DNA from: Rubripirellula sp.
GTDB lineage: Bacteria > Planctomycetota > Planctomycetia > Pirellulales > Pirellulaceae
DNA: 64,000 nucleotides
NCBI GenBank assembly: GCA_965216875.1
Contig: OZ244207.1
Location: 7,392,001-7,456,000 of the forward strand
Direction of reading: 5' to 3'
The position numbers were made by a program, and so were the translations under genes. The first letter of the stretch is position 1. Every line of letters begins with the position of its first letter. Under the pieces are notes generated by a model. The model made no database searches and was not told where the DNA came from. It saw only the letters and a list, made by a program, of their open reading frames with translations. This document shows, piece after piece, positions 1,160 through 14,585 of the stretch.

Positions 1160-2944
1160 TCACTTTGCGGCGGGCGCCGGTTGGCTTTCGCTATCGTCGT
1201 TGATCGGCTTGGGTGGCGACTTGAGATTGATCTCGAGGATCGTGTTGACCACATCGATCAGTTGGTCCAGGCGGAATGGCTTGTAGAGCACGCATTTGCG
1301 TGGAAGGCCCGCCTGGTGAGCCTTGACGATGGAGTGGCCGGGATCGTAGCCAAATCCGGTCATCAAAACCATTGGCACACGATCCATGATCTTTCCAAGG
1401 CGAAGCATCAGCTGATAGCCACTGTAATCGGGCAAGCTAATGTCACTGATGATCACGTCATAGCCGGTGGCTCCACCGCTGCCGCGAACCATCAGCACGG
1501 CTTCGTCGCCCTTGTGGGCCGTTTCGACGATACAGCCGTAACGTTCCAGCAGCGTGTGAGCGTCCTCTCGGACCTTTTCGTCGGCGTCGACCACGAGGAT
1601 GCGTTTGTCGCGCAACGAGGCTTGTTGGGGAGACTGAACGCCGGCCGGTACGGCTTCGAGTGGGGTCAGCTTTTGACCGACTTGCTGGATCGTTTGCTTG
1701 ATGTCTCTAGCGTTGTGCAAGATGCGGCGGATGCGATCGACCACGTCGGGGCTGTGTCCGATGTAGCCTTCCATGACGTTCACTGCGTCATTAAGGATCT
1801 CGTCAACCGGCATGGCGACCGCGCTGTGAATCGCGTCACAGCTCTGCTGGGCCGTGTTGGCTTTTTGTGCAACCAGTAGTTCGAGCGTGTTGAGCGCGAA
1901 CGCGATATCGCGAGCAAAGATTTCCAAGAACTGTAGGTCGCTGTCGCCAAAGGCTGACGGCTCGGGGCTTTCGACGTTGATCGTTCCGAGCACCTGGTCA
2001 TGCAAAATCAGTGGCACGGTCAGCGAACTCCGCGACGTTGCCACACCCGGGATGAACAAGGGGTCGTTGACGACGTCTTGGCACACGTAGCTCATGCCAC
2101 TGGCGGCCACATAGCCCGTGATGCCGTTGCCTTGTGGGTGAGCAAAGAGTTTGCGATCGCTCGCGTCTTGATCGATCCCAACGCTCAACAGCGGGACAAG
2201 GTTGCCAGTGTCGTGAGCGAGCAAGCGAATCTCGATCACTTCAAAATTGAGGAGATCACTGAGGTAGTGACGAATGTTCTCTTTCAAGAGGTCGATCCGC
2301 TCATCAACCTCCATCATGAAGATCTCGGAGGGACGCAGGTCGGCAAGTTCGCGTCCGGCTTGGTGAATCGCGGCGAGCTTCTGTTGTTGAAGAATCTCTT
2401 CGGTGATGTCGCCGACAGTGACGATGAGTTGGCGGCTGTGATCGGGTTGAACAATCGGTGCCGCGTGAATCTGGTAGTAGCGATTCTCGTGACTGACCAT
2501 GGTGCTGCCGGTCTGTTCCCCCGTCGCAAGTGCGGTGTGGAACGGACAGAAATCGGGACCCATGATTTCAGGGTTTCCGAGCAGCTCATAAAAGCTCATG
2601 CCAATCGGCGAGTCTTCGCCAAGCTGAGCCCACTGCAGCAGCTGGCGGTTTGCCCACAGCACGCGGTTGTCACTGTCCAGCAGTGCAGCTCCCTCGGGCA
2701 TGTCGCGAAGCATGACTCCGCTTTGAGCGACGCCGCGGAGTTCGGCCAGCTGAGGTAGCTGTTCGCGTGAGATCCAGACTCCAGCGATCGAAGGGTCAGA
2801 AAGCTCATCGACCACCGGTACGGAGGTATCGACAACGACCAAGTCGTTGTTTCGCAGCTCCTCAGGCAGAGAATCGGGCGATCCAACGCAAATGATTTTG
2901 CGCGGTTCTGTCGAGGACTGTGTTGCTTGCGGTGATCGATTCAT
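1160..2944 (-). CDS. PAS-GAF-(HisKA-like)-receiver signalling protein
   Basis: PAS (ALLDSDNRVLWAN, CPFH), GAF (GITGYVA...SSLTVPL...VLGTINVES), C-terminal REC (ILVVDAD, DVIISDISLPD, YKPF). Confidence 0.8.
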   Translation of the reverse strand: MNRSPQATQSSTEPRKIICVGSPDSLPEELRNNDLVVVDTSVPVVDELSDPSIAGVWISREQLPQLAELRGVAQSGVMLRDMPEGAALLDSDNRVLWANRQLLQWAQLGEDSPIGMSFYELLGNPEIMGPDFCPFHTALATGEQTGSTMVSHENRYYQIHAAPIVQPDHSRQLIVTVGDITEEILQQQKLAAIHQAGRELADLRPSEIFMMEVDERIDLLKENIRHYLSDLLNFEVIEIRLLAHDTGNLVPLLSVGIDQDASDRKLFAHPQGNGITGYVAASGMSYVCQDVVNDPLFIPGVATSRSSLTVPLILHDQVLGTINVESPEPSAFGDSDLQFLEIFARDIAFALNTLELLVAQKANTAQQSCDAIHSAVAMPVDEILNDAVNVMEGYIGHSPDVVDRIRRILHNARDIKQTIQQVGQKLTPLEAVPAGVQSPQQASLRDKRILVVDADEKVREDAHTLLERYGCIVETAHKGDEAVLMVRGSGGATGYDVIISDISLPDYSGYQLMLRLGKIMDRVPMVLMTGFGYDPGHSIVKAHQAGLPRKCVLYKPFRLDQLIDVVNTILEINLKSPPKPINDDSESQPAPAAK

Positions 2945-4180
2945 CGATCTTCTCCCACCACAACCCGCATGCGGTCAGTGTGTTGCCTTGTCCGGTCAAT
3001 CAAGCCCAATCGGTCTCAGTTGATTGGGGCTCCCAAACATCCCGTTCTAGCAGCCAGTCTTCAAACGGGAAGCCTGGCAAGTTTGATTCGGAATGCGTTT
3101 GACGTTGCAACTCACTTGGTTCTCGATGCCAATCGCCGATCGTCGGCGACGCGAGCTCTTTTCGCGGGTTGCCCACTTCCCACTTGGCATCATACGAACC
3201 AACAACGATTTGTCACACCGTGTTAACGCCTATTTGGTGAACTTCTTCCGTGCCTATCGGCTCCTCTCTGCCTTCATCATTACTACTAGAATGCAATCTG
3301 CGGTGATTTGTTCCTGGAAAACTGCCCTTGTGCGCGCTCTCTGGGCTGCGGTTCTCTGGGTCGCGCTAGTTCTCTGGGCTGCTTCGTTCCCTGCCGTGGG
3401 ACGGTCCTCCAACCAGCGCAACTCTCATCGTGCCTCAATCGCGTTTGCGCCAATGATTGAGTCCTCGCCACCCGCGACCGAATTCGCTTGATCGGTGCGA
3501 CGGTATGCGTCTTTCGGTATCGTTGGGCGTCTTCCGGGAATGCTGGGGTTTCTGTCGACCGATGGGCTGACATGCGCCCGATTGGCTGCCCAGGATGCTC
3601 TGTGCATCGCATCAGCACCGATCGCGGCCCCGTGTACCCGATCTCGGCCAGGCGATTCGTGTGGCTCACACCGAGCGGCTCCGTCTTGTTGCGTCCAGCG
3701 CGTGCTTGTTGCTTCCCACTCTTGCTTCAGGTCGTAGGGGCAACCAGGTGCGAATTCTGGTGGAAGCGTCGATCGCATGCACGACTCACGATGCGATCGT
3801 AGGTAAACTGGATGGCGTTGAGTGCATGGTTGAGTGCTCACTTTTCCAAGCCTCCCAGAGTGACGTCGTTGCGGTGATCCGTCAGGCTCCTCCTCCATGC
3901 TTCCGCTTAGCCGGTCCCCAAAGGTAGGGCAAGCTGCGCCATCTTATTGACCGCGTAGACGAGAGCCCAAAACCGCACGTTTTAACTGAAAAAATCGGCT
4001 ATCTGATTATTTGTTGAAATTGCGACGTTTGGTGAGAGCGAATCGTTGACACCATATCACCAACGTCTACATTTATCCGAACGTGGGGTGAATTCGCCCC
4101 ATCTTACGCAGCCGTTAAAAACTTCCTCGTATGTCTACTTATGTCTCACGGGCTGTGAGCAAATTGGAGGGTTGTCCTTG

Positions 4181-6310
4181 ATGAGAACACATGTATTAAC
4201 CAGCTTCCTCGGCTTGTGCGTTGCAGTGATGTTTGCTGCAAACGTTCAAGCAGGATCAGGATGCGGTGATTGCGGCGGCTGCGCGAGCGGTTCGCCATGC
4301 GAGACCGTTTCCGGCTGCGGCGGTTCAGACTGCGGTGGCTGCGGTACTGCGGACTGCGGTACCACCTACGAAACTCGGACCGTCATGCGTCCGCAGTACG
4401 TGACCGAGACCCGTATGGTCCCAACCACGACCTATCAAAAAGAAACTCGCACACGCACACGTACCGTTTGCAAGCGAGTGGCTCGAGTCGAAACCAAGAC
4501 TCAAACCTACACAGTGAATGTTCCTCAGACCAAGACACGCACCGAGACCTACAACGTCCAAGTTTGCGTGCCTTACACCACCGAGGAAAAGTACACGGTT
4601 CAAGTTCCCGTTAAGAGCGAGCGTGAAGAGACTTACCAAGTCTGCGTTCCTTACACCGAGGACGTCGAGCAAACCTACACCGTTTGCGTGCCAAAGACTT
4701 CGACCGTCACCCAAAACTACAAGGTCAGCGTTCCTTACACCGAAACGCAAACCTACACAGTTGCGGTCCCTTACACCGAGCAAGTCGAACAGCAATACAC
4801 CGTTCGCGTGCCAGTGAAGAAGTCGCGTGAGGAAACCTACAAAGTTCGCGTTCCTTACACCGAGCAAGTTGAACAGCACTACACCGTGCAAGTTCCTGTG
4901 AAGTCGACCAAGACGGTTGAGTACCAAGTCTGTGTTCCTTACACCGAGACGGTCACTCAAAACTACACCGTCAAGGTTCCTTACACCGAGACTCGTACTC
5001 AGAACTACACCGTTTCGGTTCCTTACACCGAAGACGTCGAGCAAAAGTACACCGTTTCGGTTCCTTACACCGAGGAAGTCGAACAGAAGTACACCGTGAA
5101 GGTTCCTTACACTGAAGAAGTGGAAGAGACCTACACCGTTCGCGTTCCTGTCAAGGAAACCAAGACCGGTACCCGTACTGTCACCAAGTGCGTTCCTGTG
5201 ACCACCATGCGTACGGTCACCAAGGACAAGGGCAGCTACGAATGCCAAGCGGTTGAAGTCAGCGGATCGGCATGCGGCGGATGTGCACCTGCTCCAGCTT
5301 GTGGCGGATGCGACACCGGTTGCGGTGGATGCGAAACCGTTGCTGACGCATGCGGTTGTGCTCCTAAGGTTGTTTACAAGCGAGTTTGGGTTCCAAACCT
5401 CGTGACCGAAGAAGTGCCTTGCACCACTTACGAGCGTCAAACGACTGAGGTTCCTTACACCTACACCGTTTGCAGCTACAACACCGAGACTCGTACTCGT
5501 AAGGTTCCTGTCACCAAGTGCCGAACCGAAGAGCGAACTCGTACCGTTAAGTGCACCAAGTACCGCACTGAAGAGCGCACCCGAACCTGCAAGGTTCAAA
5601 AGTGCCGCACCGAAGAGCGTACTCGTGAGTACCAAGTCACCTTGTGCCGCACTGAAGAGCGCACTCGTGAAGTACCTGTGACTCGCTATCGCAATGAAAC
5701 TCGCACCAAGGAAGTGCCTGTTTGCACCATGACCACCGAGCAACGCACTCGAATGGTCAACGTCTGCAAGTACCGCTGCGAAGACCGCACTCGCACCGTC
5801 AACTACTGCGAATGGGAAAACCAAACCCGCACTCGCACGGTTAACGTTTGCAAGACGCGTAACGAAGAGCGTACTCGCGAAGTCACCAAGTACCGCTGCG
5901 AAGATCGCACTCGCGAAGTTCCTGTGACCACCATGGTCCGCGAAACTCGCACTCGCACCGTGCCTGTGACCAAGACCAAGATGGAAACCCGCACTCGCAT
6001 GGTTCCTGTGACGACTTACAACACGGAAGAGCGTACTCGCACCGTGACTCGTCAACGCATGGAAACTCAAGAGCGTAGCCGCGAAGTTTCTTACACCGTT
6101 TGCGTTCCTGAAGAACGCACTCGCACCTACAACGTCACCGTGTACGACACCGTCAAGGAAGAAGTTCCTGAGGAGTACACCGTGTGCGTTCCAGTGCAAA
6201 CGATGAAAGAAGTTCAAGTTCGCGTCTGCAAGCCAGTGGCTGTTGAAGTCCAAGTTCCCGTTTCGGGATGCAACGGCTGTGCAACCGCTGACCCTTGTGC
6301 TTGCAAGTAA
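4181..6310 (+). CDS. Secreted 709-aa Thr/Val/Glu/Arg/Cys-rich mirror-repeat protein; predicted giant beta-hairpin
   Basis: ATG at 4181 with GGAGG at 4166-4170. Sec signal MRTHVLTSFLGLCVAVMFAANVQA. 14-aa VPYTE..YTV repeats, a central Cys-rich loop, then 14-aa RTEERTR repeats. Terminator directly downstream. Confidence 0.9.
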   Translation: MRTHVLTSFLGLCVAVMFAANVQAGSGCGDCGGCASGSPCETVSGCGGSDCGGCGTADCGTTYETRTVMRPQYVTETRMVPTTTYQKETRTRTRTVCKRVARVETKTQTYTVNVPQTKTRTETYNVQVCVPYTTEEKYTVQVPVKSEREETYQVCVPYTEDVEQTYTVCVPKTSTVTQNYKVSVPYTETQTYTVAVPYTEQVEQQYTVRVPVKKSREETYKVRVPYTEQVEQHYTVQVPVKSTKTVEYQVCVPYTETVTQNYTVKVPYTETRTQNYTVSVPYTEDVEQKYTVSVPYTEEVEQKYTVKVPYTEEVEETYTVRVPVKETKTGTRTVTKCVPVTTMRTVTKDKGSYECQAVEVSGSACGGCAPAPACGGCDTGCGGCETVADACGCAPKVVYKRVWVPNLVTEEVPCTTYERQTTEVPYTYTVCSYNTETRTRKVPVTKCRTEERTRTVKCTKYRTEERTRTCKVQKCRTEERTREYQVTLCRTEERTREVPVTRYRNETRTKEVPVCTMTTEQRTRMVNVCKYRCEDRTRTVNYCEWENQTRTRTVNVCKTRNEERTREVTKYRCEDRTREVPVTTMVRETRTRTVPVTKTKMETRTRMVPVTTYNTEERTRTVTRQRMETQERSREVSYTVCVPEERTRTYNVTVYDTVKEEVPEEYTVCVPVQTMKEVQVRVCKPVAVEVQVPVSGCNGCATADPCACK
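4361..5263 (+). repeat. N-arm: degenerate 42-nt (14-aa) tandem repeats, consensus VPYTExVExxYTVx
   Basis: Recurrent gttccttacaccga(g/a), mostly at 42-nt spacing or multiples of it. Confidence 0.9.
5363..6262 (+). repeat. C-arm: degenerate 42-nt (14-aa) tandem repeats, consensus (Y/C)RTEERTRxVPVTx
   Basis: Recurrent gaagagcg(c/t)actcg motifs at a 14-codon period. Confidence 0.9.
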
Positions 6311-6380
6311 TCTTGTGACTGCGATTCGTTTCGCTTGATCAGCCCGACGGGCCCGATAAGCGAAACAACAAAAAACGACG

Positions 6381-6413
6381 AAACCCCGAAGGCAAACGCC
6401 TTCGGGGTTTTTT
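6381..6413 (+). terminator. Intrinsic terminator
   Basis: aaaccccgaaggc-aaac-gccttcggggttt perfect stem followed by a T run, 70 nt after the stop. Confidence 0.9.
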
Positions 6414-9955: not shown

Positions 9956-9960
9956 CCAAG

Positions 9961-10011
9961 CCCTGAGCCTGGAACACGCCTACGCCTGAAACAAGCCTAA
10001 GCCCGAAACAA
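9961..10011. repeat. Three degenerate 17-bp tandem units in an intergenic spacer
   Basis: ccctgagcctggaacac / gcctacgcctgaaacaa / gcctaagcccgaaacaa. Confidence 0.6.
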
Positions 10012-10027
10012 GATTGAGCGACTGTGA

Positions 10028-14419: not shown

Positions 14420-14585
14420 CCCTTCCGAGCTGCTTTTTTTCGTCGGGGGTTTGCGTGGCCGCTGCAGTCCGTTTTTTCGTGCGATTTGGTGCGAGCAAGC
14501 AGGGACTCGACGGCTGTTTTCGTGCGATTTGGTGCGTGGGAGTAGGCACCCGAGCGCTGTTTTGCGGCGAAAACCTGTGGTGCAG

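Follow-up and report, generated by a model that had tools for sequence, protein, structure and literature searches.

The closest described relatives of the protein analyzed here are the YTV cell-wall proteins of Planctomycetia (R. baltica, G. obscuriglobus, T. immobilis, and P. limnophila). In the portions of the papers accessible to us, these proteins are described as rich in cysteine, specific to their class, and among the major components of SDS-resistant walls (PMC5287468, PMC8567305, PMC12673574), the SDS-resistant wall fraction contains YTV family members of other species (PMC5287468, PMC8567305), and one YTV protein is essential in Planctopirus limnophila (PMC10632474). The same portions present YTV as a repeated wall-protein motif and hold no account of complementary arms, a hairpin, or paired insertions and deletions (PMC8567305, PMC5287468, PMC10632474, PMC12673574). 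Neither the fold of the YTV proteins nor paired indels in them were found in the literature searched; older papers on the family or the AlphaFold DB may show the hairpin. In the accessible part of a work on contact-based modelling, a table gives PF07639, the Pfam family of the YTV proteins, a quality score of 0.59 and names no template for it (PMC8078820), and two supplements of that paper gave no match. The protein wall of planctomycetes has been an open question for decades, and the YTV proteins are its main known components.

The window analyzed, a stretch of 64,000 nucleotides from Rubripirellula sp. (contig OZ244207.1, positions 7,392,001 to 7,456,000), encodes a 709-aa member of this family (CDS at 4181..6310, plus strand), recognized by 13 stretches matching PF07639 (E 3.5e-49; 165 bits against a cut-off of 21), by an N terminus that by eye resembles a signal peptide, and by the 44 cysteines in its 709 residues, a richness also seen in the YTV wall proteins. 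No Pfam family besides PF07639 was detected in this protein at E<=0.1, the alveolin (IMCp) domain included. YTV matches were found in 142 of the 150 other genomes of the host family that were searched and in 52 of the 61 searched from the host class, and all the named homologues belong to Planctomycetota, mostly to Pirellulaceae. The coding sequence is preceded by a GGAGG ribosome-binding site 10 nt before the ATG, assigned by reading the sequence (4166..4170, plus strand), and by a putative sigma-70-like promoter (4046..4073, plus strand) with 10 of 12 consensus matches and a 16-nt spacer, the plausibility of which comes from its position and not from its count, as the scan returned one site and shuffled sequence averages 1.0. 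Downstream, a strong intrinsic terminator formed by a 14-pair stem and a T tail (6380..6411, plus strand) implies that the YTV gene is probably monocistronic. A divergent gene encoding a PAS-GAF-receiver protein (1160-2944, minus strand), located about 1.2 kb upstream, is a conserved neighbor of the YTV gene, and a regulatory link between the two genes is possible. Elsewhere in the window, apart from the YTV gene, short tandem repeats are found at 9957-10012 (17 bp, 3.2 copies) and at 14474-14563 (43 bp, 2.1 copies).

The architecture of the protein, with all the features on the plus strand, begins with a putative Sec signal peptide (residues 1-24, 4181..4252), read by eye from a basic start, a hydrophobic core, and a small-residue cleavage motif, followed by a Cys/Gly-rich N-terminal head delimited by sequence and family composition (residues 25-63, 4253..4369). 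The N arm (residues 64-360, 4370..5260), made of 14-aa units of the Y-T-V-x-V-P type, is predicted as an outgoing beta-strand and the C arm (residues 396-692, 5366..6256), made of 14-aa units of the E-x-R-T-R-x-V-P type, as a returning beta-strand, both from AlphaFold2, a phase model of the repeats, and covariation. The central Cys/Gly-rich loop between them (residues 361-395, 5261..5365) is strand-free in the AlphaFold2 model and free in length across the family, and the protein ends in a Cys-rich C-terminal tail seen in the sequence (6257..6307), which the hairpin register would put beside the N-terminal head. Within the family, cysteine makes up 13-14% of loop and tail, 8% of the head, and 2-3% of the arms.

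An earlier note on this sequence had claimed that three irregularities in repeat length lie at mirror-image positions in the two arms, and the sequence and coordinates that it gave, including the 12-aa units at mirror positions, proved correct by anchor count. In the N arm, the VP anchors at residues 184 and 196 delimit a 12-aa unit (residues 184-195, 4730..4765; also placed by the phase model), after which nine 14-aa steps lead to 322 and one of 16 aa to 338, and in the C arm nine steps of 14 aa separate the E-x-R-T-R anchors at 436 and 562, and a further 12 aa lead to 574. The frame of the earlier note mirrors both unit pairs about a residue sum of 754, which places the C-arm 12-aa unit at 5855-5890, and the covariation register described below is 756, in which the partner of residues 184-195 is 561-572 (5861-5896), the unit thus spanning 5855..5896 overall. 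Only this 12-aa pair survived as a lineage-level paired indel: its N-arm unit is common to the homologues L002, L003, and L005, and both the unit and its C-arm partner are missing in L004, L007, and L009. The 16-aa units (N side, residues 322-337, 5144..5191, by anchors and the proline spacing of homologues; C side, residues 417-432, 5429..5476, by anchors and the phase model) are rather a fixed, family-wide neck, since, counting back from the inner proline position in 173 homologues, a proline is found at a distance of 16 residues in 96 and of 14 residues in 1, and the +2 step of the C arm near the loop is present in nearly all long members. As for the 28-aa block, it corresponds to two ordinary units: the VP anchors divide it into 16+12, whereas the Tyr anchor gives 14+14, as does the C arm (shifted VP), and the phase model sees no length anomaly in it. 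Phase model and proline spacing therefore rule out the 16-aa unit and the 28-aa block as separate indel events.

Taken alone, the window gene, with one mirrored 12-aa unit and arms of equal length, gives modest support to the mirror claim; it is the homologues that carry mirror evidence far past chance. The further claim that the arms are not inverted repeats of each other at the DNA level held as well, in-register complementarity being 0.229, the chance level. No opposite-strand blastn match between the arms was found at E<=0.1, and both results together rule out a DNA inverted repeat or conversion between the arms.

Arm balance was scored on 90 loci and 120 of 334 protein matches, which gave 205 records after removal of 5 shortened or duplicate loci, with four conserved landmarks placed by profiles trained without the arm difference. 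The N arm minus the C arm equalled 11 in 173 of the 176 records in which all four landmarks reached >=10 bits. Across all 205 records, this difference was obtained automatically in 181 and on hand check in 8 more, 5 were not at 11 on scoring (L084, L087, P0108, P0109, and P0113), and the rest were left unscored (7 truncated or frameshifted, 2 without inner landmarks, and 2 of other architecture), so that the arm difference is constant in 189 of 194 scoreable homologues. The N arm itself ranges from 94 to 394 aa, with an even length in 173 of 173 sequences, and the spacing of the inner landmarks, which holds the central loop, ranges from 26 to 174 aa with both parities. A tree of the landmark segments requires at least 57 arm-length changes and at least 19 changes in the number of short units among the 173 best-marked homologues, which reduce to about 143 sequences at 80% identity and include kin that are not independent. 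The shifts in total length proposed in the earlier note as a read-out turned out to be a poor one, because loop and termini vary freely; it is the lengths taken arm by arm that are balanced.

To locate the short units, each arm was parsed on its own with a 14-phase model, and off-period units outside the neck were found in 37 of the 173 sequences. A same-size C-arm event lay <=8 residues from the mirror position for 50 of the 51 N-arm off-period events, against 8.1 for random placement (maximum 17 in 5000) and 9.8 for permutation among sequences (maximum 21), in a test set preselected for balanced total length, which fixes the sum of the shifts and not their places. One pair in P0020 lies about one unit off the mirror position, and one C-arm event in L073 has no partner. 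Short units number four per arm in L049 and three in L031 and L050. With respect to the window gene, both arms of L007 gain a short unit at 75/77 and lack the one at 157/161. Close pairs differ equally in both arms (26+26 in L049/L050, 14+14 in L052/L022), and L001 and L007 differ by +2/-2 at matching places. Equal-sized indel pairs across the center, which the earlier note had expected among homologues, are thus what both counts (189/194 and 50/51) reveal. A larger block of 54 aa, which includes the neck unit, is doubled in both arms at mirror positions in P0020 and related proteins with 148-aa arms. In L045, L056, L062, and L080, the arm types swap along the ribbon and the outer C arm carries YTV-type units, a pattern of sequence that suggests one ancestral self-complementary repeat.

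Unpaired indels, whose presence in homologues had been named beforehand as grounds for refutation, do occur in a few members, so the rule is strong but not absolute. In L087 the N arm contains an 84-bp duplicate of 99% identity and the C arm looked 28 aa too short; in sequencing run X1, however, a 95-bp C-arm piece has a depth of 36.9 between flanks at 13.7 and 16.9, a loose end matches the tandem junction in runs X1 and X2, and X2, from a strain related to L087, contains two separate C-arm copies. L087 is thereby ruled out as a true unpaired indel: an 84-bp C-arm tandem was collapsed in the assembly and the gene is balanced, an assembly error that the balance rule had correctly predicted. The cases that remain unpaired are L084 and P0108 (14 aa), P0109 and P0113 (1 aa, in a degenerate subfamily), L162 (2 aa), and L116 and L119 (16 aa, within near-identical repeats). 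In addition, the C arm of L164 (G159:C1:4286902-4290483) is 56 aa longer through a tandem expansion of 168 bp, exact and with no counterpart in the N arm; its repeat copies differ by 0-1, the genome is a single contig, and the sister L163 is balanced, which makes L164 a candidate for either a fresh uncompensated expansion or over-assembly. An offset of 1 aa was also seen in the paralogue of the window genome at C1:2947783-2949630 and in its same-genus orthologue.

That paralogue (L091, plus strand) and L092 (7542851-7544626, minus strand), both on C1 of the window genome (G000), are built from 16-aa units around a central segment that is almost constant. All 29 complete ORFs among the 30 orthologues in one of these two families are balanced (the remaining one is truncated), as are 26 of 30 in the other. 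In one paralogue family, 10 of 30 members had at first seemed to be out of balance by 16 aa, but this was a mis-call of the landmarks and disappeared on alignment. In a class-wide search, 25 of 30 loci were scored, as 5 were already in the sample. All 18 loci with every landmark at >=10 bits were balanced, 13 of them outside the family of the window, and among the 7 weaker loci L163 was balanced, L162 and L164 were unbalanced, and 4 were masked or of the other paralogue type. The paralogues L083 and L090 lack the big loop, the midpoint calculated from their outer landmarks coincides with a tight turn, and they differ from each other by 14 aa in each arm. The view that selection keeps the arms in pairing register, advanced in the earlier note, is therefore supported by the homologues, by the paralogue families, and by other planctomycete families.

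Arm pieces also occur in other contexts. L093 (G000:C1:5348441-5354500, minus strand) is a 2019-codon Ser/Thr kinase-WD40 ORF in which an N-type and a C-type YTV piece, one of each, are separated by about 100 aa, as if a miniature hairpin had been placed within the propeller region. P0028 and P0117 are vWA (YfbK-like) proteins with three tandem short modules in which the arm order is reversed around a tight turn, so that, judged by sequence, each module would be a circularly permuted hairpin. Nine family members (P0014, P0041, P0049, P0067, P0074, P0088, P0092, P0097, and P0102) are labelled 'ferredoxin' by their sources, which is likely a mis-annotation that probably derives from CxxC motifs in the Cys/Gly regions.

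The register of the arms was read from covariation. Pooled mutual information peaked at one antiparallel offset (sum 4.96, against 3.25 and 4.00 at the even neighbors) and showed no peak one repeat unit away (1.19 and 1.21), and column-wise covariation in 73 sequences of one fixed length gave a z of 5.4 at the same offset, with no signal in the parallel register in these 73 sequences (control maximum 1.2). In the window protein this offset equals i+j=756 and places Thr-Thr partners on one face and Tyr-Arg, Val-Glu, Val-Arg, and Gln-Arg on the other, a signal that is the same for pairing within a chain and between chains. AlphaFold2 predicted unbroken strands at 64-360 and 396-692 for the window protein, with breaks mirrored at a sum of 756, and two unbroken strands for a short homologue, with mirrored breaks at the predicted sum of 615. 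These models have low confidence (mean pLDDT 55; pTM 0.21 and 0.35), were judged by secondary structure only, and share their alignments with the covariation analysis, so they are not independent support, and the three-dimensional hairpin that they predict is held with low confidence.

Residue classes follow the same order. Arm prolines outside the neck fall in one parity class in 1885 of 1885 N-arm and 1229 of 1229 C-arm cases (3114/3114), and about 90% of threonines are in one parity class. Cys-Cys pairs are absent at the diagonal site (0 of 1406, 26 expected) and directly across the ribbon (0, 16 expected), and do co-occur one unit away (61, 56). Charge complementarity between the arms is weak (N -0.01 and C +0.07 per residue in long members). 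At 0.33-0.34 nm per residue, strands of about 295 residues would extend to about 100 nm if straight. Searches with the low-confidence models returned no Foldseek match in the PDB at E<=0.001 for either model, the weak rows being proteins with long hairpins, among them the phi29 collar and pore-forming toxins, and a best Z of 2.5 with VIA-align 2 against 48,161 chains; a profile search of PDB sequences gave 0 matches at E<=0.01. Being made with low-confidence models, these negative fold searches do not show that the fold is new. A homodimer prediction for a short member scored 0.00 and carries no weight for or against binding.

The YTV proteins thus combine balanced arm lengths, mirrored short units, position-specific covariation, and strict parity. 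The best reading, to which we assign a probability of roughly 0.8, is a single-chain, two-stranded antiparallel beta-ribbon of about 100 nm with register i+j=756, the balance of which is kept by selection. According to this reading, the secreted protein would fold back so that residue i pairs with 756-i along some 295 residues per strand, with every 14-aa unit of the N arm matched to a single unit of its own in the C arm. Tandem duplication or deletion would strike each arm separately, and an unmatched change, by looping out a segment of strand, would be either purged or offset by a change of the same size in the opposite arm, leaving balanced alleles through selection on the zipped ribbon and stepwise tandem indels. 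By general beta-sheet rules, the proline class would be the outward-facing, non-hydrogen-bonded pairs, where prolines would stop edge stacking. The arm cysteines would avoid each other across the ribbon. With the loop at the tip and both termini at the base, the Cys/Gly-rich ends might cross-link rods by disulfides, each rod acting as a strut in the SDS-resistant wall mesh; that the hairpin puts the Cys-rich loop, tail, and head at the two rod ends suggests that the rods would be struts of the wall, cross-linked to one another through these ends.

Pairing between molecules, N arm to C arm, in domain-swapped dimers or an open polymer with the Gly/Cys loop as a hinge, would produce the same length and covariation results, could accommodate loops of up to 174 aa, and has a counterpart in the alveolin beta-ribbon, which the available text of one paper predicts to form either intramolecularly or from two partner chains (PMC12465100). 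Nevertheless, some members have an inner spacing of just 19-24 aa and, together with the tight-turn paralogues L083 and L090, resemble plain hairpins, and single-chain models fold as hairpins, so we regard inter-chain pairing as distinctly improbable. The hairpins could also be staves that, like those of pore-forming toxins and phage collar tubes, build a larger assembly, either a long beta-barrel or a sheet, with the tube requiring balance; any long hairpin is geometrically suited to this, and the walls contain fibrous SDS-insoluble material according to the accessible part of PMC8567305. However, the proline present in nearly every N-arm unit, always in one pair class, should break edge-to-edge hydrogen bonding if it points outward, which makes staves very improbable. 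A different question, compatible with the single-chain ribbon, is whether arm length itself is selected as a ruler that sets wall mesh size, wall thickness, or periplasm width, much as the length of tape-measure proteins of the FliK/YscP type sets that of a structure. The genetically encoded ruler that the earlier note had added to its inference gained support from none of the results. Near-fixed lengths in paralogue families (191/179 in 20 of 30 and 140/135 in 22 of 29), a subclass of 82 proteins with a 148-aa N arm, and the fact that a stiff rod with reactive ends fixes spacing by construction would agree with a ruler, but at the same syntenic locus beside the PAS-GAF-receiver gene (which adjoins 20 other loci among the 90 with short flanks) N arms of 150 to 330 aa occur, each arm differs by 14-28 aa between close relatives, and paralogues of unequal length coexist within single genomes, leaving this role possible though unlikely.

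Matched indels might instead arise in one mutational step, the center of the gene being replaced through a conversion tract or a template switch, in which case balance would reflect mutation more than selection. When the two arms are compared across genes, their youngest internal duplicates are indeed similar in identity (Spearman 0.71, n=64), and L049 and L050 bear near-exact 54-codon duplicates in both arms; such similarity agrees with quick compensation and equally with gene-wide homogenization. The best duplicate blocks have equal spacing in only 21 of 64 genes and mostly lie off mirror positions, and the correlation (median r 0.79) between mirrored self-similarity profiles of the DNA was left out of the evidence as inflated, because both arms are less repetitive at their ends. 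Against a single step stand the mirror positions without DNA complementarity, the free and independent changes of the loop between the arms, the covariation and parity of residues, which require protein-level selection, and L164, which resembles a fresh expansion of one arm; we consider it extremely unlikely. Chance, or an artefact of anchor choice, would fit the two of the three original irregularities that proved anchor-dependent or family constants, but the arms were parsed separately and still 50 of 51 events were mirrored, and the landmarks were trained without the arm difference. Homologue balance, the mirror test, and replication in paralogues and class-wide refute this explanation, to which we give virtually no credence.

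Beyond the single-chain ribbon, a tentative and, as a whole, rather doubtful picture is that YTV proteins are tunable rods, single-chain beta-ribbons 30-135 nm long whose evolution resembles that of RNA stems, their ends reactive for disulfides and their arm cysteines kept for links between molecules, polymerizing into a covalent protein sacculus that replaces peptidoglycan in planctomycetes, with arm length setting mesh size or thickness. The residue-level register makes the structure and function of YTV proteins directly testable. Nature also offers in this family a remarkably clear example of indels that compensate for one another in a protein, dozens of events and some candidate intermediates included; almost all length changes of one arm are matched in the other, which can be likened to RNA stem evolution. 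A free-standing two-stranded ribbon of about 100 nm, if true, would be a useful design template.

Outside the family of YTV wall proteins, the alveolins, articulins, and epiplastins are alike in having medial repeats rich in Val, Pro, Glu, Lys, and Thr between head and tail and a predicted twisted beta-ribbon with a specific partner strand, intra- or inter-chain, as given in the available text of PMC12465100 and PMC6212826; a beta-ribbon from two matched Val/Pro-rich segments is likewise found for the YTV arms, as a prediction on both sides. Unlike the window protein, which is bacterial, probably secreted from its signal-like N terminus, has a 14- or 16-aa period, and ends in Cys-rich regions, they are eukaryotic, form a cytoplasmic membrane skeleton in protists, and have a heptad-type repeat, so the likeness would be one of analogy, of working alike and not of membership. 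The stems of beta-pore-forming toxins (aerolysin, lysenin) and the collar tubes of podoviruses are also built from long antiparallel two-stranded hairpins, but these are far shorter, non-repetitive, set on globular domains, and stable only in oligomeric barrels, and no sequence relation to the YTV arms was found. Finally, in the coiled-coil arms of SMC and Rad50 one chain folds back and its distant halves pair in fixed register to make a long rod, 49 nm in SMC with tight limits on arm length in the accessible part of the source (PMC5526789); in contrast to the YTV arms, these are alpha-helical, carry an ATPase head and a hinge, and are constrained in length, whereas the YTV proteins have a labile length and are tightly held only in the balance of their arms.
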